Positions 1,649 through 63,205 of a stretch of 64,000 nt of DNA are shown one piece after another; within the stretch, counting starts at the first letter, position 1, and the number at the start of each line of letters is the position of its first letter. The stretch covers positions 7,484 to 71,483 of the forward strand of contig CAYMOY010000001.1 of the NCBI GenBank assembly GCA_964392435.1. The letters run 5' to 3'. The DNA is from Candidatus Micrarchaeota archaeon. Its GTDB lineage: Archaea > Micrarchaeota > Micrarchaeia > Anstonellales > Anstonellaceae. The notes beneath the pieces were generated by a model. That model did no database searches. It saw only the letters and a list, made by a program, of their open reading frames with translations, and was not told the DNA's origin. Made by a program: the position numbers and the translations under genes.

Positions 1649-3406
1649 CTAGCACACCTGGCTGGCTGGAGGGCAAACCGGATTCTGCCCAGGGCAATCG
1701 GTGCATGGGTGCTCCGTCTTCCAGGTGCTTATGGGCCCAAGGCAGCAGCAGCCGTAGGAAAAGGAATTGAACGAAAGCGAAAGGTAGGTGCTGTTCGTGC
1801 TTGAATACCTGCAGGTGGTGAAACACTGTCTGGCTTGAATTGCGGCAAGCGCAGCATTGACATCTGCAGCTATTTTCTGTTCGCACGCGGCGCGCGCGTT
1901 TTCTCCCTGCGCATAGGCGGTCAGCCCTATTCCCTGGCATTCGATTGCGCAGTTCACCGGGACAGGGTCGCAAACATCTCCAATCCCATCCCCGTCATGG
2001 TCGGACTGGCTTGGGTTGTAGCTGCTCGGGCAATTATCTGCAAAGTCGCATTTCCCGTCGGCATCAGTATCCTGGCAGGCGCATAGGCATGACTGGGAGC
2101 AGGAATAGTTTTGCGGGCAGGAGCCAGCATTCCCGTCGCACTCCTCGCCGCCTTCCTTCACTCCGTTTCCGCAGGCTGCGGGCGCTACTGTGTTCTGGCA
2201 GGAACACTGCTGGTTGCAAGTCTGGCTGCCCGAACAAGCGTTTCTATCAGCACCGTCGCACTGCTCGCTTCCCTCGCGGACATTGTTGCCGCACACTGCT
2301 TGCGCGGCTGTTGCCCAGCAGTAGCAGTTGGAGCAGGTCTGTGTCGCATTGCAGTAGCCCCGGTCCGCCCCGTCGCACTGCTCGCTTCCTTCGCGAACAT
2401 TGTTGCCGCACGTGGCGGTGGTGACAGAATCGATTATCAGCACCAGCCCCTTGGTGCTCTGGTTCACAGGGCATCTGCAGTTTGGCTGGCACACTGCGCC
2501 GCCGCAAAGCTCGGCTGATGCCCCGTCGCACTGCTCGGTTATTTCCCTTATCCCGTTGCCGCACACCCCCTTCGTGCCCACCACGCATTCGCACTCTGAT
2601 GAGCATACCTCGTTTGAATCGCAGTACCAGTCCTGATTGCCGTCGCACTCCTCCATCGCCTCCTTGAAATTGTTGCCGCAGGTGTGCGAGGTCACATCCT
2701 TTGGTATGCACGTGCAGGTCCTCAGGTCGCACTTGTAGTCCATGCCGAACAGGTCCGAGCAGTCGTCGCCGCAAGAGGGCAGGGTGGTCCAGATGAAATT
2801 GTTGAGCCCTGTGGATGAGGCGTACTGGTGGTTCGCCTTGCAGCTTATGGGCATTGCCGCGGTGTAGCATTTGCAGCCGCTGCAGTATTCCCCACCGCGG
2901 CATCCGTTGGCTGATGGCTTGTCCTTGCTGCCGACATCGCAAACCTCCCCAGAATCAAGGGTGCCGTCCCCGCAATAAGGCTGGGCGGCCTTGGGCGCAG
3001 GCGGAGCCGTGGTGTTGTTCTGCATCCCTTGCCCTGCGGCATCGGCAGGCTTTGCCTTGCACAGGCAACTGGAAATATTGCATTGCCGATTGGCATCCTG
3101 GCATGCGATGCCCCCCTCGCACTGCTCGCCCCCCTCCAGCTTGCCATTGCCGCAAGATGGAGCTGGCGGTTGCTCTGTTTTGTTTTCTGCGGATGGCGCG
3201 GCAGCCGGGGCAGGTGGCTGGGCATCCTTCTTCACGCACTTGCAAGACCTGCATATTTCATCGATGCCAGCGCAGCCAGCGTCGCTTTCGCACACTTCGC
3301 TCGCATCCAGCCTGCCATCGCCGCAAACAGGGGCAGGCTGCGTGCATCCGAAATACAACAAGGCTGATGATAGCAGAACAAGCAGCAACAAACGGGAAAA
3401 CTCCAC
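1649..3406 (-). CDS. Secreted cysteine-rich repeat protein (Myxococcus-type Cys-rich repeats CGNGxxExxEQCDG plus thrombospondin type-3-like DxDxDGxxDxxDNCP repeat)
   Basis: ORF 1649..3493; probable GTG start at 3406 gives a signal peptide (M)EFSRLLLLVLLSSALLYFGC. Repeated VCGNGIREITEQCDG / TCGNNVREGSEQCDGADR units; DTDADGKCDFADNCPSSYNPSQSDHDGDGIGDVCD. Confidence 0.7.
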   Translation of the reverse strand: MEFSRLLLLVLLSSALLYFGCTQPAPVCGDGRLDASEVCESDAGCAGIDEICRSCKCVKKDAQPPAPAAAPSAENKTEQPPAPSCGNGKLEGGEQCEGGIACQDANRQCNISSCLCKAKPADAAGQGMQNNTTAPPAPKAAQPYCGDGTLDSGEVCDVGSKDKPSANGCRGGEYCSGCKCYTAAMPISCKANHQYASSTGLNNFIWTTLPSCGDDCSDLFGMDYKCDLRTCTCIPKDVTSHTCGNNFKEAMEECDGNQDWYCDSNEVCSSECECVVGTKGVCGNGIREITEQCDGASAELCGGAVCQPNCRCPVNQSTKGLVLIIDSVTTATCGNNVREGSEQCDGADRGYCNATQTCSNCYCWATAAQAVCGNNVREGSEQCDGADRNACSGSQTCNQQCSCQNTVAPAACGNGVKEGGEECDGNAGSCPQNYSCSQSCLCACQDTDADGKCDFADNCPSSYNPSQSDHDGDGIGDVCDPVPVNCAIECQGIGLTAYAQGENARAACEQKIAADVNAALAAIQARQCFTTCRYSSTNSTYLSLSFNSFSYGCCCLGPISTWKTEHPCTDCPGQNPVCPPASQVC

Positions 3407-3504
3407 ATTCCCACCCCCTGAGGTTATCCTCGTTTCGGTTTTTATTTCTTTTGGGCATCCCGAAGCATCATGCTCAAAGCACGCTCCTTCCAAGCCAGGA
3501 AAAA

Positions 3505-4530: not shown

Positions 4531-4941
4531 TTGGTCTGCATGAAACAGATAGCCATAGTTTCCGATGACAAGGTGGGCCTGCTTGCCGATATCTCATACA
4601 TTCTTGGCAAGGCAAGGATAAACATCGAGTCAATCTCAGTCCAGACGCACGGGGGCAAGGGCGTCATCAACCTTACGGTCAAAGACGACCAAAAAGCGAT
4701 AAAGATGCTCTCCTCAAACGGCTTCGAGGTTCTCTCCTCCGAGATTATGCTAATCAGGCTCAAGGACGAGCCTGGAGAGATGTCTAAAATGACCAAGATG
4801 CTCAAGGACAACCACGTCAACATCGAATCTCTTTATATCGTGGCCCGGGGGGAAGATGGGTTTGCCATACACGCGCTCAAGGTGGACAAGCCCAAAAAGG
4901 CGAAGAAGCTGCTTTCCCACTCAATAATGACTTCAGACTAG
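4531..4941 (+). CDS. ACT-domain protein (tandem ACT-like)
   Basis: IAIVSDDKVGLLADISYILGKARINIESISV... ; C-terminus KVDKPKKAKKLL shared with next gene. Confidence 0.6.
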   Translation: MVCMKQIAIVSDDKVGLLADISYILGKARINIESISVQTHGGKGVINLTVKDDQKAIKMLSSNGFEVLSSEIMLIRLKDEPGEMSKMTKMLKDNHVNIESLYIVARGEDGFAIHALKVDKPKKAKKLLSHSIMTSD

Positions 4942-5049
4942 CCAGTCAGGTCTTGTTTTAGGGTGCCCGCAGTAGGCTGTCCTGCTTGCGGCAGAACGCT
5001 TTTATACTCCGGCAGCGATTGTTTGCCGGGAGGTGGGTCTGTGAAGCAG

Positions 5050-5436
5050 ATGACTCTAGTCGCCCATGACAGGGTGGGGGTACTTGCCGAAATCTCCCGC
5101 ATCCTGGGCAAGGCTAAAATAAACATAGATTCCGTTTCCGCTGTCTCAATCGGCGACAGGGCTATCCTCACCTTCCTTCTTAAGAATGAAAAAAAAGCGG
5201 CAGGCCTGCTTCGCCGCAGCGGCTACCATGTGCTGGAATCCGAAATATTCGTGGTGCGCCTGAGAGACGAGCCAGGCGCGCTCTCAGCACTCTCTTGCAG
5301 GATGGTGGATGAGAAAATAAACATCATCAACCTTTACATAGTCGCAAAAGAGCCAGGGGTTTCAGTTGTCGCACTTAAGGTGGACAAGCCAAAAAAAGCA
5401 AAGAAGCTGCTTGCCCCATACATGAATTTCGACTAG
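5050..5436 (+). CDS. ACT-domain protein, paralog of the upstream gene
   Basis: MTLVAHDRVGVLAEISRILGKAKINIDSVSA...; same KVDKPKKAKKLL C-terminus; ORF track start 4963 probably too far upstream. Confidence 0.6.
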   Translation: MTLVAHDRVGVLAEISRILGKAKINIDSVSAVSIGDRAILTFLLKNEKKAAGLLRRSGYHVLESEIFVVRLRDEPGALSALSCRMVDEKINIINLYIVAKEPGVSVVALKVDKPKKAKKLLAPYMNFD

Positions 5437-8283: not shown

Positions 8284-9945
8284 ATGGCAAAGAATCTAGA
8301 AGGACAACAGGTAATGGTTCTCCCCGAGGGGAGCAACCGCGTGCTTGGGCGGGACGCGCAGCGCATAAACATAGCCGTGGCTTACGCGGTTGCAAACATC
8401 GTGCGCACCACGCTTGGGCCAAAGGGCATGGACAAGATGCTGGTTTCCGAGCTTGGCGACATTGTGATAACAAACGACGGGGCGACCATCCTTGAGGAGA
8501 TGAATGTCGAGCACCCGGCGGCAAAGATAATGGTGGAAATTGCCAAGACGCAGGACAAGGAGGTCGGCGATGGCACCACCACCTCTGTCATGCTCGCAGG
8601 GATGCTTCTGAAGAAGGCGGGCGACCTTCTGGACCAGGACATACACGCCTCCACCATAGTGAAGGGCTACGACCTGGCTTCAAAGAAGACAAATGAGTTT
8701 CTGAACAAGATAGCCACCAAAGTGTCCATAAGCGACAAGGCAATCCTGGAGAAAATCGCATCCATTGCGATGGGCTCCAAGTCAATAGGCGTGGGCACCA
8801 ACAAGGATGCGCTTGCAAAGCTGGTGGTCACCGCCGTCACGCAGGTGGCGGAGCTGAAGAACGGCGCCTACTTCGTGGACGACGAGCTTGTCAAGATTGA
8901 GAAAAAGGCGGGCGGGGACATCAACGACACCGCGCTCATACAGGGTGTGCTTGTCGACAAGGAGATAGTCCACCCGGGCATGCCGAAAAACATCAAGAAC
9001 GGGAAGATTGCCCTTCTGGACTGCGCCCTTGAGATAGAGAAGACCGAAATCGACGCAAAGATAGAGATAACCTCGCCAGACCAGATGCAGGCTTTCCTTG
9101 GGCAGGAGGAAAAGATGCTTCGTGACATGGTGGACAAGATAGCGGCAACAGGGGCGAACGTGGTCTTCTGCCAAAAAGGCATTGACGATGTCGCGCAGCA
9201 CTTTTTGAACAAGAAGGGAATCTCAGCAGTGCGCCGCGTGAAGAAGTCGGACATGGAAAAGCTCGCCCGCGCTACAGGTGGCAAGATAGCCACCACGCTG
9301 GATGACCTGTCAGCAAAGGACCTCGGCTTTGCAGGCGATGTGAACGAGAAGTCAATTGCCGGCGAGAAGATGGTCTTCGTGGAAAACTGCAAGGACGCCA
9401 AGTCGGTGACAATATTCGTGCGCGCCTCCACGGACCACGTGGTCTCGGAAGGCGAGCGGGCGATAACCGACGCGATTGGCGCGGTTTCCTCGGCAATAGA
9501 GGACGGCAGGTACGTGACAGGCGGAGGCTCCACTGAAATCGAGCTTTCCATACAGCTTGGCAAGTACGCAACCGAAATCGGAGGAAGGGAGCAGCTTGCC
9601 ATACAGGCATTCGCAGAGGCGCTGGAGACAGTGCCGCGCACGCTTGCGGAAAACGCGGGCATGGACGCGATTGACGCGCTTGTCAGCTTGCGCTCCAAGC
9701 ACAAGAAGGAGGGCGGGGAGCACTTCGGCGTGGACGTTTACGGCGGGCAGGTTTCCGACATGAAGGCAATCGGGGTGTTCGAGCCACTCAAGGTGAAAAC
9801 ACAGGCAATCGCCAGCGCCTACGAGGCAGCGAAGATGCTGCTGCGCATTGACGACATGATTGCCTCCAAAGGAAAGAGCGGCGGAATGCCTCCTGGCGCA
9901 GGCGGCCCTGGCGGCATGGGCGGCGGCATGGGCGGGGACTACTAA
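8284..9945 (+). CDS. ths: Thermosome (group II chaperonin) subunit
   Basis: 553 aa; [24 protein letters not shown] motifs; C-terminal GGM repeat tail [21 protein letters not shown]. Confidence 0.92.
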
Positions 9946-9962
9946 GGCTTTTTTCTTTTTTT
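9920..9962 (+). repeat. Direct repeat copy 1 (thermosome 3' end + T-rich terminator), matches 11321-11362
   Basis: gcggcggcatgggcggggactactaaggcttttttcttttt identical 42 nt at both sites. Confidence 0.8.
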
Positions 9963-10147
9963 ATTTTCTTTTTTTCCCGGGCTTTTTCACATCAAGCCCG
10001 GAATCCGTTTTTTGCAAATCCCTTCTGCTTTTCCGAAAGGTTTTCAAGTGCGGCTTGTCCAAACTGCCGGCAAACCATCGCCCAATCCCATCAATCATCA
10101 AGCCGGATTTTAAAAATGAGATAATTTATTGCAGTCGTTAGTGTTTT

Positions 10148-10176
10148 TACTAGATTAAATATATTCAAATCTAGTA
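10148..10176 (+). promoter_or_regulatory. Perfect 9-bp inverted repeat TACTAGATT-N11-AATCTAGTA embracing a TATA-like box upstream of the NTase gene
   Basis: tactagattaaatatattcaaatctagta, ~40 bp upstream of 10215 start. Confidence 0.35.
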
Positions 10177-10214
10177 ATAACAAGCTTTATATGTTTTCAG
10201 GCTAAAGCAATACC

Positions 10215-10805
10215 ATGGACAATGCATTCGGCAGAAAATACAAGCGGGTGCTGGAGATACTCCCAGATGTTGCGGAGTGCGCAGGGGAAAAACTGATCCT
10301 GGTGGGCGGGACCGCCCTTGCCCTCTTCCATTTGAAACATCGCGTCAGCGTAGATTTGGATTTCGTGCCTGCCGGCGGCAACGACATCAGGCTAAAGGAA
10401 GAGCTCAAAGGCTGTATGTCAAAGAGAGGCTACCGGACCTCTCCTGGGCGCTTCAAAAACCAGTTCGTGGTGCAGTTTGAGGACACCAGCATAAAAGTGG
10501 AGATTTTCATCCCAGACAGGAAAATCAAGCGCGTCGAAGAGCACGAATTTTGCGCCAGAAAGATACGGGTGGCTTCCTGCGAGGACATTTTTCAGATGAA
10601 AATTGCCGCCTATAAGGACAGGAGAGAGGCGCGCGACCTGTTTGACATATTCTGCATACTTCAGGCCCGCGGGCGGGATTTTGGCATGGTGAAGAAACTA
10701 TTATCCGGCGGCATGCCGAAAAATATCGGCGACCTGGAGATTATGGCGCTTAACCGGTCTGATGCGACTGGATTGCGGAAGGTGATTCTTGATGCTTCTT
10801 CCTAA
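10215..10805 (+). CDS. Nucleotidyltransferase-fold protein (AbiEii/DUF1814- or MNT-like toxin/antitoxin-type NTase)
   Basis: Pol-beta NTase motif LILVGGTALALFHLKHRVSVDLDF (hG[GS]...DxD). Confidence 0.55.
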   Translation: MDNAFGRKYKRVLEILPDVAECAGEKLILVGGTALALFHLKHRVSVDLDFVPAGGNDIRLKEELKGCMSKRGYRTSPGRFKNQFVVQFEDTSIKVEIFIPDRKIKRVEEHEFCARKIRVASCEDIFQMKIAAYKDRREARDLFDIFCILQARGRDFGMVKKLLSGGMPKNIGDLEIMALNRSDATGLRKVILDASS

Positions 10806-11346
10806 GCAGGCAATCAGTTTCCGGTCTCTTTTCGCCCAGGGCTTTGCCAAAACAGAAATCTCATCAATGTCCGCTTCTCTCAAGCTGTTTCCCTCCCCTT
10901 TCAAGGGGATTTATTATGTGCCTTTGGAGGAGGAAAGGAAAGGCGGGTTCATCGAAAAGCCGCTTGCGGCGCTATCCCAGGCAATTCGCATTTTCCTGGG
11001 AAATAGCAATTTTTATTTCAGCTGCCAGACCGCTGAGGAGGCGCTCGGATTTGACTGGCAGCCCTCGGGCAGCGTGCATGTGGTCAATGAGAGGCTTTCC
11101 AGGCGGATAAACCTGAACCGAAGGATTGAGGCAAACCGTGCAAAAGGCAGCTGGCGCTCAAGGAAAATTGCGAAGCTGCTTTCATTTTACGGGACCGAGA
11201 TAGTGTTCCATCGCGGCAGCATTGAACGCGCCAGGACAAAACAGATGCCTTACGGGCAATTCGCGCGCCTGTCGCAAATAAAAAAAGACAGGAAAAGGTT
11301 CAGGGAAATCAAGGGAAACAGCGGCGGCATGGGCGGGGACTACTAA
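10789..11346 (+). CDS. Hypothetical partner protein of the NTase; C-terminal residues NSGGMGGDY are encoded by the duplicated thermosome tail
   Basis: Overlaps upstream gene by 17 nt; ORF terminates with the same stop codon context as ths. Confidence 0.4.
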   Translation: MMLLPKQAISFRSLFAQGFAKTEISSMSASLKLFPSPFKGIYYVPLEEERKGGFIEKPLAALSQAIRIFLGNSNFYFSCQTAEEALGFDWQPSGSVHVVNERLSRRINLNRRIEANRAKGSWRSRKIAKLLSFYGTEIVFHRGSIERARTKQMPYGQFARLSQIKKDRKRFREIKGNSGGMGGDY

Positions 11347-11362
11347 GGCTTTTTTCTTTTTT
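11321..11362 (+). repeat. Direct repeat copy 2 (duplicate of thermosome 3' end), right boundary of inserted cassette
   Basis: Identical to 9920-9961. Confidence 0.8.
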
Positions 11363-11420
11363 ACTTTTTTTGTTTCTTCCTTTTCTTTCTATAGTGCTTG
11401 TCATGCGCTTTTCCATGCAC

Positions 11421-12449
11421 TCACTTCTCATCCGGCGCACACAGCCTTTCCGATATTTTCTTTCCTGAAGGAAGGTATTTTGAGAGGCTATGCGGCAGCT
11501 GCGCGGTCATCCTATAAGTGGAAACACCGATTGGTTTTTTTACCTCTTTCAGCGCATACTCCACAATCGTCCTGTCCTTGCTCTTGCAGATGATTATTCC
11601 AATCGAAGGCTTTTCGCCCCCCATTCTCACCTTGTCATCAAGCACCGAGAGATAGAATTGCATCTTTCCCGCGTACTCAGGCATGAACTCCCCGACTTTT
11701 AACTCTATTGCCACGAGGCATTTCAACTTCCTGTGGTAAAGCAGCAGGTCAACAAAAAACTCGCTGCCGCCGACTTCAAGCCGGAACTGGTTCCCAATAT
11801 AGCAGAAACTGCCGCCCATTTCCACAAGAAAGCTTCTCACCCGTTTCATGAGCGCGCCTTTCAGTTCTTTTTCAGAATGCTCCCCTCCCAGCTCAAGAAA
11901 ATCAAACGTGTACTCATCTTTGACTGCCAGCTTTGCCTGCCCTTTGTACCTGGCTGGCAAGGCTTTATCGAAATTAGTCTGGTTTGTGAGATATTTCTCA
12001 TACGACCTATTCTCAATCTGGTGGATAAGCACGCTTTTCGTCCAGCCAAACTTCCGGATCATTTTGATATAGAACTCCCTTTCAAGGTCGTTTTTGCACT
12101 TCTCCATGACAACTAGGTTCTTAGCCCAGCTGATTTCTCGCACCAATGGTGCGAGTTTTGCATTTTTGCAGTAGCTTTGGTAGAAATTCCGCATTCTCCA
12201 AAGACTGGCGGGGGAAAAGCCATGCACACCGGGATACTCCTTCTGCAGATCAAACGCAAGCCTTTCTACAATCGCCTTGCCCCAGCTGAACTTTTCCTGC
12301 TTCTCGGCTATTTCCCTGCCGATGTCCCAGTAAAGATTAACGAGCTCCTTATTGACTGCCTTCAGCGCGGAATACTGCGCCTCCCGTATCCTGTTCTTAA
12401 TCTCAATTACAAAATCCCTGTAGCCAGATTCCTTTACGAGCGCACTCAT
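11421..12449 (-). CDS. PDDEXK-nuclease family protein (DUF1016/YhcG-like)
   Basis: N-terminal ...AVNKELVNLYWDIGREI... and C-terminal LVAIELKVGEFMPEYAGKMQFYLSVLD match DUF1016; start at internal Met (12449) of ORF 11421..12500. Confidence 0.6.
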   Translation of the reverse strand: MSALVKESGYRDFVIEIKNRIREAQYSALKAVNKELVNLYWDIGREIAEKQEKFSWGKAIVERLAFDLQKEYPGVHGFSPASLWRMRNFYQSYCKNAKLAPLVREISWAKNLVVMEKCKNDLEREFYIKMIRKFGWTKSVLIHQIENRSYEKYLTNQTNFDKALPARYKGQAKLAVKDEYTFDFLELGGEHSEKELKGALMKRVRSFLVEMGGSFCYIGNQFRLEVGGSEFFVDLLLYHRKLKCLVAIELKVGEFMPEYAGKMQFYLSVLDDKVRMGGEKPSIGIIICKSKDRTIVEYALKEVKKPIGVSTYRMTAQLPHSLSKYLPSGKKISERLCAPDEK

Positions 12450-12524
12450 TTCAACCACATCGCGCAAATGTGGGCAGTTCCACGCATTAAAAACATTCAC
12501 AGGGTAGCATGCCAGTAGTTTTTC

Positions 12525-13409
12525 TCACTTCCTTTCCCATCCCCTTGCCATCTCCTTTTCCAGGAATCTCACCAGGGGCGCCACCCCGCGATTGGTCTCG
12601 TAAGCGTGAAGCGCAGAATAGTAGGCGTGCCTTTTCCGGTAAAAGATGACCACGGGCGGCAGGCCGTTTTTCAGCAGTATGTTGTTCATCAGCAGCCTTC
12701 CCACCCTGCTCGTGCCTTCACGGAAAGGGCGGATGTTCTCGAACTGGCAATGCACCAGTGCGGCAAGCACCAGCGGATGGCGCCTTTCCCTGTTGTTATT
12801 ATACCATTCCGCCAGCCCAAAAAGCAAGCCCTTCACCTGGCTCCAGGGGGCGCCCCTGTGCACAATCTCGCCCTGCCGGTTCCTTACCACCAAGTCGACG
12901 CGCCTCAGTTTCCCTGCAAACGGCTCGGAATTCCTGAAAGCCGCCTTGTGCAGCTCCAGCATCAAAGGAACGGACAGGTGCGTTTTTGTCTCAGCCAGCA
13001 TCCTTGTTGCTCTTGCAACCCCGTAGGTTTCGGCAATGTCCTCCTTTGGCTTGTCGGGCCAGAGGTTGTTCTTCAATATCTCGCCTGCCTCCCTCCGGGT
13101 AATGCTTGAGCCTTCGATGGCATTGCTGTTGTAGGTGAAATCCACCACAAATTCCTCCCACTTCTTTTTTCCCACCCTTGCCCTCATTGCCCTTGCCTCC
13201 ACGCTGCCAAATGCGATTTCCCACTGCCCCATCAGCTTTTCCCTGCCCTCAAGCTGCTTTCTGGCAGCCTCGTGTTTGAGCACCAGCTCCTCCCTTCCCA
13301 AATTGGTGCCCAGGTAAACCCTGTCTTTCCTCACCTTCTGCCCCTGCCGGTACGAGCGGGTCAGGTAGAATTTCCTCATTTTCCTTTTTCCCCTTGCCTC
13401 AATGTACAT
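12525..13409 (-). CDS. Fic/DOC family protein with degenerate active-site motif (RPFREGTSRVGR instead of HPFx[DE]GNGRxxR)
   Basis: FTYNSNAIEGSSIT N-terminal Fic motif; core motif has His->Arg and GNG->GTS; TATA-like TTAATAAAT ~25 bp upstream of ATG 13409. Confidence 0.65.
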   Translation of the reverse strand: MYIEARGKRKMRKFYLTRSYRQGQKVRKDRVYLGTNLGREELVLKHEAARKQLEGREKLMGQWEIAFGSVEARAMRARVGKKKWEEFVVDFTYNSNAIEGSSITRREAGEILKNNLWPDKPKEDIAETYGVARATRMLAETKTHLSVPLMLELHKAAFRNSEPFAGKLRRVDLVVRNRQGEIVHRGAPWSQVKGLLFGLAEWYNNNRERRHPLVLAALVHCQFENIRPFREGTSRVGRLLMNNILLKNGLPPVVIFYRKRHAYYSALHAYETNRGVAPLVRFLEKEMARGWERK

Positions 13410-13735
13410 GCACCATCTTGGGTGCCTACAATTTATTAATGCTTTCCAAAAGGTGACCACAAAACAGGCAAATCTTCCTCTGCTCCCCCCTTTTTTCCCA
13501 TCTGCCCCCGCCGCAAGAAAGCGCATCCGGCCCTTCCAAAAGCTGAACCGGCGCATCCTTGGCTCTTTGCGCGCGCAAGGGGGGCGAAGAAATGCTTAAA
13601 AACATTACTTTCGAAGCGTCTGAACGTGGAAGGCAGAATACAGGGCAGTTCAGACTTTTCCAGATGCGAGCACGAGCCCAGCCCCCACAAGGCAATAATT
13701 TTCAGCCAGCGTCAGTACTAATCGAGGTGAGCCAT

Positions 13736-16700
13736 ATGGTGTCCCAAAACACAAAGCAAACGTCCGCGCGCATCTTTTCCGCGATTCTATTCGTAGCGCT
13801 TTTCGCCGGGACGGTTGCTGCCGCGTCAAGTGTAACATCGGTTTCAGCAACTACTGCAAACGGTTCCTATAAGGCCGGTTCCTTCATAAATATAACAGTA
13901 ACATTCAACGAATCGACCTATTATATCGGCGGTATTGGAAATCCCTATTTGCTTTTGAATGTGACTACTGGTGGAAGAAATGTGTCCATATTCTCTCCAG
14001 CTCCTGGAATGGGCTCATTGATATTTAACTTCAACTATACAGTTCAGGAAGGCGACACTTCTGCAGTTTTAGACTATATGAACAATGCATCTCTCACCGG
14101 TAGCATTAAGACCATGGAGGACTCTTCGTCATCCATCTTGACTCTTCCAAATCCTGGTGCGGCAGGTTCGCTTGGCGCGAACAAGAATATTACAATCGAC
14201 ACGTCCATCCCAGGAATCACATCAATCAGCACCAACACAACCGACGGCTCTTACAAGGCAGGGACCAAAATCTACCTGTTCGTTGTCTACAACGACTCTG
14301 TAACAGTGTCAGGCGGAACGCCGACAATCGACCTTAACTCAGCAGGAACTGCCCAGTATGTGGGCGGCTCAGGCTCCACCAACCTCTCCTTCCTATACAC
14401 TGTCGCTGCAGGCGAGAACTCTGCAGGGCTGGTCTACAACACGACAACTTCTCTTAACCTCAACGGCGCCACAATCAGGGACGCTGCAGGCAACGACGCG
14501 GTCGAAACCCTGCCAGCAACCGCGACATTCACAGGGGCACACGCAATTGTCATCGACACCATACCCCCGGTAATCACCGGCCTTGCGCTTTCCCCAAGCA
14601 GCGGCTACGCCAAGATAGGTGATGTAATCCACCTGGCGATAACAGCTGACGCGGCAGGCTACACCAACACATCAATAACGGTCAACGGCATCCCGGCAGA
14701 GGATTTCGAGGACCTGACCGGCGGCGCCTACGGAGTTAACTACACAATCGCAACCGGCCACAGCGACAGGGCAGCAGGGTTAGTCCCTGCAAGCGTCACC
14801 CTGTCCGACGCCGCTGGCAACTCAGTGACGTATTCCACAGTGGGTGCGAACACACTTGAAATAATCGCAAATGCGCCAATAGTCTCCTCAAACGCAATTG
14901 TCACTCCCGCGGGCTCCTACAAGGCTGCGGATGTTTTGAGCTTCTCGGTAACCTACAACAAGACAGTGGTGGTGACCGGCACGCCCAGAATAAAGCTCAA
15001 TGTTGTGGGAGCTGCCACCAGGTATGCGAATTTTGTCTCAGGCAACGATTCGGCCATTCTGGTGTTCAATTACACGGTGGTTGACGGAGACAACTCGGCT
15101 GACCTTGGGGCTGAGGACACAAGCTCGCTTGATCTGAACAGCGGCACAATAAAGGACCTGGCCGGCAACAACGCGGTCAACACGCTTGATGACGACTTCA
15201 CAGGAAGCAGCGTGGTAGTTGACACGTCCATCCCTGGAATAACGTCAATCAGCACCAACACAACCGACGGCTCTTACAAGGCAGGGACCAAAATCTACCT
15301 GTTCGTTGTCTACAACGACTCTGTAACAGTGTCAGGCGGAACGCCGACAATCGACCTTAACTCAGCAGGAACTGCCCAGTATGTGGGCGGCTCAGGCTCC
15401 ACCAACCTCTCCTTCCTATACACTGTCGCTGCAGGCGAGAACTCTGCAGGGCTGGTCTACAACACGACAACTTCTCTTAACCTCAACGGCGCCACAATCA
15501 GGGACGCTGCAGGCAACGACGCGGTCGAAACCCTGCCAGCAACCGCGACATTCACAGGGGCACACGCAATTGTCATCGACACCATACCCCCGGTAATCAC
15601 CGGCCTTGCGCTTTCCCCAAGCAGCGGCTACGCCAAGATAGGTGATGTAATCCACCTGGCGATAACAGCTGACGCGGCAGGCTACACCAACACATCAATA
15701 ACGGTCAACGGCATCCCGGCAGAGGATTTCGAGGACCTGACCGGCGGCGCCTACGGAGTTAACTACACAATCGCAACCGGCCACAGCGACAGGGCAGCAG
15801 GGTTAGTCCCTGCAAGCGTCACCCTGTCCGACGCCGCTGGCAACTCAGTGACGTATTCCACAGTGGGTGCGAACACACTTGAAATAATCGCACATCTGCC
15901 TGTGGTTTCTTCAGTTAGCTCGGATGGTCGGACATTCAATACTGGGGGCAGTTCAACCTCTATAATAACAGTTACTTTCAACAAGAGCATGAGTGTTGCC
16001 CCCTCAATATCTGTCAACAGCTTAAGTTTAACAGTGAATGACTGTGGCGACTCGAATGCAACGACTTTCTGCATTGCCTACCAAATACCGAGCTCATACG
16101 CAGGCAGTATGACTATACAGATTTCCGGGGCAAAGGACCTGGCAGGAAACACGATGGCGGCGGACAACTCGCACACTTTCGATGTTGACACCGTCCTGCC
16201 CACAGTGACCGCATCCTCGCCGCAGGGAGGCACTTCCGCATCCTCGCCCATTACAATTAACGTGACCACCAGCATAGCGGCATACTGCAAGTATGACACG
16301 CAGGACCGGTCGTATGCCACAATGGCATACAACTTCAGCAACGGGCAGGGAACAACCGCGCACACAAGCAGCGTGGCACTCGCCTCGCAGGGGCTCAACA
16401 ACATCTACGTGGCTTGCGCGAGCATGAACGGAAGCGCAATGACCTCATCTGTGAGGCTGTACACCACATATGACACCACCAGCAACTTCAACTACACCAA
16501 GCAGCTCAACCTTGGGTGGAACGACATGCCTCTGCCCAGAGTGGTTCTGGAGGACCTCGACTCGTTCTCTGACGGGAACTACAGCGTGGTGAACGTGCTT
16601 GAGACAAAGGGCGGGATAGGCGGCAGCTACGACTACCTGTACTACCGCAACGGCACCTCCTGCTCGTCGCAGAACGGGAGCTGCTGGCTGTTCTACGACC

Positions 16701-16798
16701 CGTCACTTGTGACTGGCACCCTGTCTGAGTTCAACGACTGGGACAACCTGCCATACTGGATACACATGAACGCCAGCGACAGGCTGGAGCTCAACTAG
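13736..16798 (+). CDS. Large secreted surface (S-layer-like) glycoprotein with repeated Ig-like domains and internal perfect DNA repeats
   Basis: SD GAGGTGA then MVSQNTKQTSARIFSAILFVALFAGTVAAA signal; >60 N-x-S/T sequons; repeated ~110-aa SYKAG...LNGATIRDAAGNDAVETL modules. Confidence 0.75.
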   Translation: MVSQNTKQTSARIFSAILFVALFAGTVAAASSVTSVSATTANGSYKAGSFINITVTFNESTYYIGGIGNPYLLLNVTTGGRNVSIFSPAPGMGSLIFNFNYTVQEGDTSAVLDYMNNASLTGSIKTMEDSSSSILTLPNPGAAGSLGANKNITIDTSIPGITSISTNTTDGSYKAGTKIYLFVVYNDSVTVSGGTPTIDLNSAGTAQYVGGSGSTNLSFLYTVAAGENSAGLVYNTTTSLNLNGATIRDAAGNDAVETLPATATFTGAHAIVIDTIPPVITGLALSPSSGYAKIGDVIHLAITADAAGYTNTSITVNGIPAEDFEDLTGGAYGVNYTIATGHSDRAAGLVPASVTLSDAAGNSVTYSTVGANTLEIIANAPIVSSNAIVTPAGSYKAADVLSFSVTYNKTVVVTGTPRIKLNVVGAATRYANFVSGNDSAILVFNYTVVDGDNSADLGAEDTSSLDLNSGTIKDLAGNNAVNTLDDDFTGSSVVVDTSIPGITSISTNTTDGSYKAGTKIYLFVVYNDSVTVSGGTPTIDLNSAGTAQYVGGSGSTNLSFLYTVAAGENSAGLVYNTTTSLNLNGATIRDAAGNDAVETLPATATFTGAHAIVIDTIPPVITGLALSPSSGYAKIGDVIHLAITADAAGYTNTSITVNGIPAEDFEDLTGGAYGVNYTIATGHSDRAAGLVPASVTLSDAAGNSVTYSTVGANTLEIIAHLPVVSSVSSDGRTFNTGGSSTSIITVTFNKSMSVAPSISVNSLSLTVNDCGDSNATTFCIAYQIPSSYAGSMTIQISGAKDLAGNTMAADNSHTFDVDTVLPTVTASSPQGGTSASSPITINVTTSIAAYCKYDTQDRSYATMAYNFSNGQGTTAHTSSVALASQGLNNIYVACASMNGSAMTSSVRLYTTYDTTSNFNYTKQLNLGWNDMPLPRVVLEDLDSFSDGNYSVVNVLETKGGIGGSYDYLYYRNGTSCSSQNGSCWLFYDPSLVTGTLSEFNDWDNLPYWIHMNASDRLELN
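14222..14869 (+). repeat. 648-bp perfect direct repeat, copy 1 (inside surface protein gene)
   Basis: Identical to 15245-15892 (offset 1023 bp); ORF track shows identical spurious ORFs 14358..14573 and 15381..15596. Confidence 0.9.
15245..15892 (+). repeat. 648-bp perfect direct repeat, copy 2
   Basis: See copy 1; flanking 25 nt nearly identical with 3 mismatches. Confidence 0.9.
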
Positions 16799-25082: not shown

Positions 25083-25117
25083 GCAATTCTTCCCCCTGCC
25101 CGTGAATATAAATCGTT

Positions 25118-25200
25118 CGGTTTTTATTCGGCGCACCGAATAAAAATCTGATGCATTTTCGTTGCAACGAAAATGGCACATCGGTTTTTATTCGGCGCAC
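25118..25200 (+). promoter_or_regulatory. Palindrome cluster: IR TTTTTATTCGG-N4-CCGAATAAAAA (25121-25146), perfect 18-bp palindrome TTTTCGTTGCAACGAAAA (25156-25173), second copy of CGGTTTTTATTCGGCGCAC (25182-25200)
   Basis: Located between histone 3' end and the start of the membrane-anchored regulator gene. Confidence 0.45.
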
Positions 25201-25364
25201 TGAACAATAAGCGATGCGTTCTGCAGCGCAAAACCGCGCCCCTTTTTGCCCCGCAAAAAAGACGCCTTCCACACCTCTGTGATGGTGGCAAAGGGGGAAA
25301 AGACGATTTGCAGCTATGACTCTGATTCCGTAAAACAGGCCAGGCGCCAGGGGCCTGAATGGGG

Positions 25365-30719: not shown

Positions 30720-30771
30720 TTTGCCCCGGGGGCGTATCCATTTCCCTCGCCTAGCCTGCGGGTCAGCTTCT

Positions 30772-30897
30772 GGAAAAAGCTCACGCTTTTTCCATCTTAT
30801 CTGAGCCTGTCGGCTCAGATTCAGGAAAAATCTATCAAGATTTTTCCATCCGATTGGAATTGAGATTCCAAGTCTGGAAAAAGCTCACGCTTTTTCC
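30772..30897. repeat. Array of five hairpins in convergent intergenic region: GGAAAAAGCTCACGCTTTTTCC (30772-30793 and identical 30876-30897), variant GGAAAAATCTATCAAGATTTTTCC (30824-30847), interleaved with palindromes CTGAGCCTGTCGGCTCAG (30801-30818) and TTGGAATTGAGATTCCAA (30854-30871)
   Basis: 52-bp periodicity of the GGAAAAA/TTTTTCC units; T5/A5 runs on both strands suggest bidirectional terminators. Confidence 0.6.
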
Positions 30898-31391
30898 ATC
30901 CTATCCAAAAAGCCCTGCGCCTTTTTCCGTATGCCCTGGCTGCCCAGAGGCACCACCACCGCGCCGGCATCGGGCTGCCCGTAAACAAGGGTGCCCCCCT
31001 TTGCGCGTGCCATAACAAGAAGGGAAGTCAAATCGTCCTCGCCAACCACAAATATCGCGCCGCTGCCTGCCGCAAGCACGCTGTCCACGGCTGATGAAAG
31101 CTCGTCGGTTATAACTCCGGGCGGGGAGAGGACCACAAAAGCGCTTGCAGCATGCAAAGCAAAGGTTTTTTTCATATCCAAAGGTATTTCCGCCCGCTTT
31201 ATCTTGAAATCAAATGCCAGTATGTCAGGCGCATTGCCAAGCCGTATCATGTCAAATGCGCATTGGTCCCCAACCGATATGAGCGGCCTTTTCGCCGCGG
31301 CAAGGGCAGCTTCCAGTTTTTCCTTTCCCAAAACAGTGCCAAAGGGCTTGCGCACCTCGTCTCTTAGGTGTTCTGGCAATCTCAGCATCAA
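30885..31391 (-). CDS. DUF359-family protein (possible GTP-dependent dephospho-CoA kinase)
   Basis: 168 aa; weak recollection-based family assignment (ISVGDQCAFDMIRLGNAPDILAFDFKIKR). Confidence 0.4.
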   Translation of the reverse strand: MMLRLPEHLRDEVRKPFGTVLGKEKLEAALAAAKRPLISVGDQCAFDMIRLGNAPDILAFDFKIKRAEIPLDMKKTFALHAASAFVVLSPPGVITDELSSAVDSVLAAGSGAIFVVGEDDLTSLLVMARAKGGTLVYGQPDAGAVVVPLGSQGIRKKAQGFLDRMEKA

Positions 31392-62948: not shown

Positions 62949-63017
62949 GATGATTACCTCTTTTGCGCGCCAGCGCAAAACTGCACGGATGGCGAAGCGC
63001 CTCGGGCAGGATGGAGC

Positions 63018-63076
63018 AAACCGAAGGTTTGCGACAGCTTTGGAGCTTCAGCTCCAAACTGCACTGATGGCGAAGC
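63018..63076 (-). repeat. Partial duplicate of tRNA-Asn 3' end plus 20-nt trailer (TCCTGCCCGAGGCGCTTCGCCATCxGTGCAGTTT), separated from the gene copy by hairpins GGAGCTGAAGCTCC and GCAAACCTTCGGTTTGC
   Basis: Plus-strand ctgcacggatggcgaagcgcctcgggcagga (63022-63052) vs ctgcactgatggcgaagcgcctcgggcagga (63060-63090). Confidence 0.6.
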
Positions 63077-63205
63077 GCCTCGGGCAGGACTTGAACCTGC
63101 GACCTATGGATTGCTGCCGTTGCATTCGCAACAGTTAACAGTCCATCGCTCTACCGTTCAGTCTCAAGAGGGCGCACCCTCAAGAAAAGACTGAGCTACC
63201 GAGGC
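63077..63205 (-). tRNA. tRNA-Asn (anticodon GTT) with two introns: 33-nt D-loop intron and 24-nt canonical 37/38 intron
   Basis: Acceptor GCCTCGG/CCGAGGC, D-stem GCTC/GAGC, anticodon stem ATGGA/TCCAT, loop CTGTTA|intron|A, T-arm GCAGG-TTCAAGT-CCTGC, G73. Confidence 0.65.

Follow-up and report, generated by a model that had tools for sequence, protein, structure and literature searches.

We analysed a 64,000-nt stretch of DNA from a Candidatus Micrarchaeota archaeon (GenBank assembly GCA_964392435.1, contig CAYMOY010000001.1, positions 7,484 to 71,483 of the forward strand), hereafter the window, and focused on four consecutive genes located between the thermosome gene (8284–9945) and a large surface-protein gene (13737–16798). 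Within a coding span of 10215–13409, these genes encode an AbiEii-family nucleotidyltransferase (NTase) and its overlapping partner on the plus strand, followed by a YhcG/DUF1016 nuclease and a Fic protein on the minus strand. They most probably represent three separately acquired, self-contained units, namely Fic, YhcG and an AbiE-like cassette, that share one intergenic slot. As toxin/defence islets go, the locus is an ordinary one, built from known families. The closest relatives of the window's genes likewise point to a Micrarchaeota-type DPANN archaeon. An earlier reading of the letters alone (the sequence-only reading) had proposed that Fic and DUF1016 could form a novel two-gene defence module; this proposal is refuted, as the adjacency of the two genes proved essentially non-recurrent elsewhere. 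Its four family assignments (AbiEii NTase, overlapping partner, DUF1016/YhcG and Fic) were borne out by Pfam, PADLOC and AlphaFold/Foldseek matches, and its description of the stretch as accessory and variable holds, with other cargo or no cargo at all in the same slot of relatives.

Fic–YhcG adjacency in other genomes

A Fic–YhcG module is unsupported because the pairing is non-recurrent, because direct repeats bracket YhcG alone, and because YhcG has a promoter-like leader of its own that is conserved in loci without Fic. We examined neighbourhoods from either side. The Fic-side sample comprised the 80 best species-representative loci, 67 of which extend at least 1.2 kb 3′ of Fic. None of these 80 loci contains YhcG within 6 kb by tblastn, and a search of their 1416 open reading frames (ORFs) with the YhcG hidden Markov model returned nothing at E<=1. 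The family has no recurrent neighbour of any other kind either, the largest neighbour cluster comprising 4 of 77 loci. On the YhcG side, a Fic gene lies within 5 kb in three of 80 loci (L090, L108 and L109; L-numbers are labels for loci of relatives compared with the window) and is absent from the remaining 77. L090 shows the orthologous Fic-to-YhcG arrangement in a relative, where a 321-aa gene is also present. The Fic genes of L108 and L109 belong to other subfamilies (30–33% identity); the L108 pair is situated inside a type I restriction–modification (RM) remnant, and the L109 pair next to a Schlafen-like gene. The partner is likewise missing from the closest relatives of each gene, both for YhcG (L088, 86%; L089, 82%; L168, 79%) and for Fic (66–74% identity).

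The closest Fic relatives also reveal how the slot varies. The surface-protein gene is retained as the divergent neighbour of Fic in L005, L007 and L008, and the position past Fic is empty in L005–L007, is occupied by MNT, HEPN and DUF4325 genes in L002–L004, and holds a Schlafen AlbA_2/HATPase_c_4 gene in L008.

In all three loci that combine Fic with YhcG, direct repeats surround YhcG alone. The repeat of L090 is 134 nt long and 94% identical between copies, and the final 36 nt of Fic fall within its left copy; L108 and L109 carry direct repeats of their own around YhcG. In the window, local alignment detected the end of Fic (last ~48 nt) a second time in decayed form (~70% identity) at 11367–11424 on the minus strand, just past the YhcG stop codon; its first nucleotides, GTGAG, are also those with which the 134-nt repeat of L090 starts. 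No direct repeats were found around the window's own Fic gene.

The conserved YhcG leader (12450–12515, minus strand), which includes the TATA-like element GTTTTTAAT, was delineated by comparing upstream regions by eye. In the printed sequences, a leader of ~75–80 nt with a TATA-like GTTTTTAA(G/T)G is common to the window, L090, L088, L089 and L168, and the last three of the relatives keep it without any Fic gene. In the window, homology of the leader starts ~10 nt past the Fic stop codon.

An AbiE-like cassette at the thermosome 3′ end

By analogy with AbiE systems, we read the NTase pair as an AbiE-type toxin–antitoxin (TA) cassette in reversed, toxin-first order, with the partner acting as antitoxin and autorepressor. 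The putative toxin (10215–10805, plus strand, 196 aa) matches the Pfam family AbiEii, formerly DUF1814 (PF08843, E 7e-18, 65.9 bits against a cut-off of 22.5), as well as 20 PADLOC AbiEii models (best 1.9e-17). Its NTase motifs, read from the sequence, are intact, with GGT at residues 31–33 and DLD at residues 47–49.

The partner gene (10792–11346, plus strand, 184 aa) overlaps the AbiEii gene by 14 nt and encodes a divergent AbiEi-like protein, a putative antitoxin/repressor. The protein has no match in Pfam, and nothing in the PDB matched its sequence. A family search assembled ~134 members of ~175 aa, all restricted to Micrarchaeota. The PADLOC AbiEi model matches the window protein weakly (E 0.008) and is matched by 19 of 31 family members, at best with 2e-5. 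An AlphaFold (AF2) model of the partner has a predicted local distance difference test (pLDDT) score of 90.8, with a disordered tail at residues 176–184. Among PDB structures searched with Foldseek, its four best matches are AbiEi-family antitoxins, including 1zel/Rv2827c and the AbiEi of S. agalactiae (6y8q), at probabilities of 0.84–0.99.

Upstream of the toxin gene, a comparison of cassette loci defined a conserved leader (10135–10214, plus strand) that contains a palindrome, ACTAGATT...AATCTAGT, at 10149–10175 with 10-bp arms, and a TATA-like TTTATAT at 10186–10192, ~25 nt 5′ of the AbiEii ATG. The palindrome (CTAGATTAAA...TTTAATCTAG) is kept upstream of the TATA box in six independent cassette loci, where homology extends from ~80 nt before the ATG. 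AbiEi autoregulates its own operon, and on this basis we regard the palindrome as a putative operator. The spacer between the left repeat described below and the cassette leader (9977–10134, plus strand), with a GC hairpin and then a T-run at ~9971–10010, did not align with any other cassette locus, and its sole Rfam match was sub-threshold and due to chance.

The cassette resembles the AbiEi–AbiEii systems of Lactococcus and Streptococcus agalactiae and the MenA–MenT systems of Mycobacterium tuberculosis in several respects. Like them, it has an AbiEii/DUF1814 NTase in which the GG[ST] and DxD motifs are intact, and the NTase gene overlaps that of a small partner, for which Rv2827c and the S. 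agalactiae AbiEi are the best matches to the predicted fold. A promoter palindrome, as in AbiEi autoregulation, is also shared. In contrast, AbiE systems have the antitoxin before the toxin, whereas the window has the toxin first. The Micrarchaeota-restricted partner family is unrecognised by any Pfam model, the putative promoter is of the archaeal kind, has a TATA box and apparently yields a leaderless transcript, and the last nine residues and stop codon of the antitoxin derive from a duplicated thermosome 3′ end.

This duplication consists of two direct repeats (DR1 and DR2) that enclose the AbiE pair only. DR1 (9920–9976, plus strand), found by a repeat search and Smith–Waterman alignment, spans the final 26 nt of the thermosome gene together with its stop codon and T-rich tail. 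DR2 (11321–11376, plus strand) is a second copy of the thermosome 3′ end and supplies the partner gene with its stop codon and T-rich terminator. The repeat is 57 nt long; the first 42 nt are identical in both copies, which then diverge. Its Smith–Waterman score of 92 compares with a shuffle maximum of 30, and no other repeat pair of this kind is present in the 64-kb window. The duplication noted near these genes by the sequence-only reading is genuine. The conserved core of the partner is complete and ends with KKDRKRFRE, after which the frame runs on into DR2, so that the last nine residues, the stop codon and the terminator are thermosome duplicate sequence.

The same overlapping pair, with an AbiEii gene of 195–200 aa first, was present in seven of seven independent loci examined (among L170, L172–L175 and L177–L178), three of which have flanking repeats. 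Their contexts are unrelated, as the cassette follows tRNA-Leu, lies beside an integrase, or adjoins a RuBisCO, PEPCK or histone gene. In L172/L173 (5540–6885), it is followed by a tyrosine integrase that is preceded by a sequence resembling the 3′ end of tRNA-Leu. In L170 (4137–4424), a real tRNA-Leu(CAG) precedes the cassette by ~200 nt, and the intervening DNA retains a remnant of the sequence found upstream of that integrase. The layout of L172 and L170 suggests that the AbiE cassette may sometimes ride on an integrative element. A relative of the window organism (L178–L183; inositol-1-phosphate synthase 83% identical) combines an AbiE cassette with RHH/PIN genes, a different Fic (29% identity) and ParE/RHH genes, and this cluster occupies another slot, syntenic with 19.6–27 kb of the window.

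The Fic protein

The Fic gene (12525–13409, minus strand) encodes a class II (FICD-like) protein of 294 aa, assigned by Pfam (PF02661, E 3.2e-15), by an exact match to a called protein and by an alignment of 29 homologues. The start at 13556 assumed in the sequence-only reading had to be moved to 13409 (MYIEARG), from which the 294-aa product is identical to the called protein. A TATA-like element, TTAATAAATT, lies ~26 nt 5′ of this ATG, at 13430–13439 on the minus strand, and judged by sequence only it may be the promoter of a leaderless Fic mRNA. Among PADLOC models, the protein matches PDC-S04 (2e-27) and SoFic (7e-25).

The closest solved relatives of the family in a profile search against the PDB are FICD proteins (E 6.6e-32), followed by SoFic (2.5e-12), the latter match covering only residues 149–271 of 374. 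The class II inhibitory helix motif (S/T)xxxE(G/N) is present as SNAIEG in the window and as TNAIEG in the family consensus. The protein is not a SoFic orthologue, because it scores 33.8 bits against the SoFic equivalog model NF046030, far below the cut-off of 550. Similar to class II Fic proteins (FICD/HYPE and SoFic), it combines the Fic fold with an N-terminal inhibitory helix motif and is encoded by a stand-alone gene. Unlike SoFic, the window family lacks a C-terminal winged helix-turn-helix domain and has a basic N-terminal extension of ~45 aa instead. No small antitoxin of the AS1 kind (PMC12249575) is evident past Fic, where the next gene is YhcG.

The active site of the window copy departs from the class II Fic motif HxFx(D/E)GNGRxxR and from that of its own family. 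The family carries the canonical HPFxDGNGRxGR motif, whereas the window copy reads RPFREGTSRVGR: residue 227 is Arg (codon CGC) at the position of the catalytic His, which is conserved in 29 of 29 aligned homologues, and GTS stands where the family has GNG. The His-to-Arg change is not an assembly error, because an independent Logan contig encodes the identical protein. Loss of the catalytic His in Fic enzymes abolishes AMP transfer, and from its sequence the window Fic, though full length, is probably inactive as an AMPylase.

Family members are uniform in length, and at least 586 species-representative genomes from Micrarchaeota, Woese-, Pace-, Alti- and Bathyarchaeota encode one. Across 30 sequences, residues 1–45 form the conserved basic N-terminal extension, MHIExRxxGxxKKYYLAHSYRxGGKVRKxRxYLG, which has no match in Pfam.

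The YhcG nuclease

The YhcG/DUF1016 PD-(D/E)xK nuclease (11421–12449, minus strand, 342 aa) is co-directional with Fic across a gap of 75 nt, as previously noted, given a start at the Met codon at 12449; the longest ORF reaches 12500. Pfam identifies both DUF1016_N (PF17761, 4.8e-44) and YhcG_C (PF06250, 5.3e-60), and the PADLOC candidate PDC-S02 is matched with 9.8e-143 over positions 7–338 of 346. Inspection by eye shows an intact D...ELK motif (FFVDLLLYH...LVAIELKVG). A search against the PDB gave no match for this protein.

PDC-S02 is typically found inside type I RM loci. The window protein agrees with this candidate in its full-length match, in both Pfam domains and in the intact D...ELK motif, and its relatives adjoin hsdM, hsdS and hsdR; the commonest neighbours are HsdM and HsdS (8 of 79 each) and a second YhcG (7 of 79). 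It differs in that no RM system lies near the window gene, which is located behind Fic in an archaeon. DUF1016 and Fic/DOC genes have been reported within type I RM loci, between the core genes (PMC9881135). One PDC-S02 representative gave no protection against T4, T5 or T7 in E. coli (bioRxiv 10.1101/2024.09.26.614923). Our best guess is that YhcG acts as a stand-alone DNA-targeting nuclease, either defensive or selfish.

Relatives that are 61–86% identical occur in both archaea and bacteria (80 metagenome loci), and YhcG is present on 525 plasmid records. In finished plasmids, YhcG relatives lie inside otherwise contiguous operons, such as between cas3′ and cas10d of a type I-D CRISPR-Cas locus in Anabaena pANA02 (L184) and between traD and traI in a Rickettsiales plasmid (L187). 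All archaeal copies (the window at 12490–12515, L088, L089, L090 and L168) have two to four copies of CCACTGG(A/C)AT (CACYGGMAT) just 5′ of the YhcG promoter. The same motif also occurs 3′ of Fic in L008 (6240–6350), where the cargo gene differs. L005 has part of the Fic 3′ end a second time (1944–2030), ~50 nt past the Fic stop codon; no cassette separates the copies, and the extra copy may be the scar of a lost insertion.

Direct repeats flanking cassettes

We compared how often these genes and other ORFs of the same loci are flanked by direct repeats, taking flanks strictly outside the ORF and requiring a Smith–Waterman score of at least 40. Flanking repeats surround Fic in 13 of 69 loci, compared with 16 of 524 other ORFs (odds ratio 7.4, p 4e-6), and YhcG in 15 of 66 loci, compared with 11 of 221 other ORFs (odds ratio 5.6, p 6e-5). 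Ten of the top-scoring control ORFs with repeats are themselves of accessory type when searched against Pfam (NYN, AAA_14/DUF4143, or no match). The repeats are 24–179 nt long, 77–100% identical and locus-specific, and often represent the 3′ end of the adjacent resident gene (thermosome, Fic, a helicase). The downstream copy begins 0–5 nt past the cassette stop codon in 10 of 28 cases.

Mismatches between repeat copies number 13, 18 and 37 at the three codon positions, favouring the third (p 8e-4). Because the copies are imperfect and their mismatches are biased in this way, the repeats are real target-derived sequence, and an assembly artefact is unlikely. No relevant Rfam family matched them. 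Four finished plasmids carrying YhcG showed no flanking repeats, a sample too small (n=4) to be informative. A false signal from two tandem paralogues in the window (4531–4941 and 4963–5436; ACT-domain-like, with homologous 3′ ends) was excluded by placing the flanks outside the ORF.

Variable intergenic slots in defence islands, known as ‘minimal mobile elements’, are similar to the slot described here in that differing accessory genes occupy the same position and TA and defence genes cluster. In contrast, the insertions described here leave locus-specific direct repeats of 25–180 nt from the end of the neighbouring gene; to our knowledge, long target-derived repeats are not a described feature of such slots. 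Tentatively, and with the doubt outweighing the confidence, we suggest that cassettes made of a promoter and an ORF may insert at the ends of resident genes, duplicating 25–180 nt of the target without a cassette-encoded recombinase. This would apply to AbiE, YhcG, Fic, NYN and AAA_14 cassettes, in DPANN and some bacteria. The repeats could arise when a circularised cassette that carries a short piece of the neighbouring gene integrates by a single crossover, when a staggered cut duplicates the target, or by template switching.

Proposed assembly of the locus

We hypothesize that Fic is the resident gene, which would have stayed beside the surface-protein gene in this lineage. It is a class II, FICD-like protein of a family found very widely across DPANN and Bathyarchaeia genomes, and members of this family should be auto-inhibited AMP-transferases. 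A YhcG cassette, consisting of the promoter-bearing leader and the ORF and moving widely between archaea and bacteria, would then have inserted directly behind the Fic stop codon, duplicating the Fic 3′ end. The most recent step would be the insertion of a 1.34-kb AbiE-like TA cassette at the thermosome 3′ end, which left the 57-nt direct repeats. This cassette would comprise a palindromic operator and TATA box, the AbiEii NTase toxin and the overlapping, divergent AbiEi-like antitoxin. By analogy with AbiE and MenAT, the NTase may arrest growth, either through nucleotidylation of tRNA or through the use of GTP, while its partner would serve both to neutralise it and, via the palindrome, to repress the operon. 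The families, repeats, synteny, motif states and rarity of the Fic–YhcG pair are observations, whereas biochemical activities, promoter and operator functions and the sequence of insertions belong to the proposal.

Several points weigh against this proposal. Neighbourhoods were read from metagenome-assembled contigs, many of them short, and the three Fic–YhcG adjacencies among 80 loci (one in a related genome, L090, and two at unrelated loci) are somewhat more than a naive random expectation, so Fic and YhcG may have a functional synergy inside defence islands. The decayed Fic 3′-end copy in the window is marginally significant, with p from 0.001 to 0.04 depending on the scoring, and would be weak if taken alone. 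Structurally, the partner matches AbiEi to a modest degree, with template-modelling (TM) scores of 0.34–0.44 and E from 9e-3 to 6e-2. Finally, the exact thermosome protein is absent from the records and no genome with an empty site was found for the thermosome insertion; we therefore infer the direction and mechanism of that step.

Alternative explanations

The proposal that three units arrived separately was weighed against four alternatives. A dedicated two-gene defence module, in which, for example, Fic senses or regulates, YhcG is the nuclease effector and the Fic promoter drives both genes, could draw on the 75-nt spacing of the co-directional genes with no strong terminator between them, on the identical order in L090, on the Fic genes beside YhcG in L108 and L109, and on the degenerate active site of the window Fic, which is compatible with a regulatory role. 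However, YhcG is absent from all 80 Fic-family loci and Fic from 77 of the 80 YhcG loci, the closest relatives of either gene lack the partner, and the Fic genes of L108 and L109 are of other subfamilies. With repeats around YhcG alone in all three adjacency loci and a conserved TATA-bearing leader belonging to YhcG itself, we consider such a module very improbable. We give equally little credence to acquisition of the whole 3.6-kb block as one horizontally acquired element, such as the remnant of an integrated plasmid or virus. All four genes do come from mobile, accessory families, GC is lower across 10–12.5 kb, and AbiE cassettes elsewhere (L172/L170) adjoin a tyrosine integrase and a tRNA-Leu-like att sequence. 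Yet the thermosome repeats enclose the AbiE pair only, relatives without the other genes still have Fic in synteny with the surface-protein gene, and GC content at third codon positions (GC3) is ordinary in all four genes. Moreover, the block contains neither an integrase nor a tRNA, and a search of viral contigs for the AbiE partner family found none.

That Fic could instead be a housekeeping AMPylase/de-AMPylase of the FICD kind, acting for example on a chaperone, so that its proximity to the thermosome gene would be functional and unrelated to toxicity or defence, is unlikely. In its favour, the closest solved relatives of Fic are FICD proteins, by a far better score than SoFic, the family is uniform in length across at least 586 species-level genomes, and the autoinhibitory motif is conserved. 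In contrast, the family has no conserved neighbour, relatives have no thermosome gene beside Fic, direct repeats flank the gene in 13 of 69 family loci, as expected of mobile cassettes, and loss of the catalytic His in the window copy would be unexpected for an essential regulator. The repeats, for their part, might be taken for integron-type attC sites, with the 57-nt repeat and its counterparts delimiting the cassettes of an archaeal integron array. Integrons have reportedly been found in Archaea, often with TA cassettes, and single genes between direct repeats of 40–180 nt resemble cassette arrays. This explanation is extremely improbable, as the repeats are locus-specific and often consist of the coding 3′ end of a neighbouring gene, their mismatches favour third codon positions, and no integrase gene is near in the window. 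The repeats also lack long imperfect hairpins, with most z-scores from −0.6 to +1.8 and local hairpins in L090 only.

Composition and other features of the window

Among 52 ORFs of the window, YhcG has the lowest GC content (0.476, z −2.5), and GC is reduced over 10–12.5 kb. The composition check suggested for the island by the sequence-only reading thus gave a divided answer, since low GC sets YhcG apart whereas GC3 is unremarkable in all four genes, and Fic looks native in both measures. Further repeats occur elsewhere in the window. The surface-protein gene (13737–16798) contains an internal tandem duplication of 1023 bp, 99–100% identical, at 14198–15520, and a gene at 1649–3493 contains six copies of a 48-nt, Cys-codon-rich repeat (2127–3155). 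Additional repeat pairs of 30–52 nt, some of them palindromic and intergenic, lie at 25117–25210, 30769–30905 and 62960–63089.

Implications

The locus illustrates that two adjacent defence-like genes are not necessarily a system, as neighbourhood statistics and insertion scars point to their separate arrival. For the families concerned, a toxin-first AbiE variant, with an antitoxin family that at present lacks annotation, is widespread in Micrarchaeota, and the FICD-like Fic family is very common in DPANN, where it behaves as a stand-alone and often mobile gene. The residual interest of the locus lies in this toxin-first archaeal AbiE variant and in the unexplained pattern of repeat-flanked cassettes. 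Should the insertion of cassettes at resident-gene ends prove true, it would be a hitherto unrecognised way for single-gene defence and toxin cassettes to move, with the thermosome-end duplication of the window as a fresh example. If the target-derived repeats reflect a distinct insertion pathway, they would be relevant to the spread of defence genes between archaea and bacteria.

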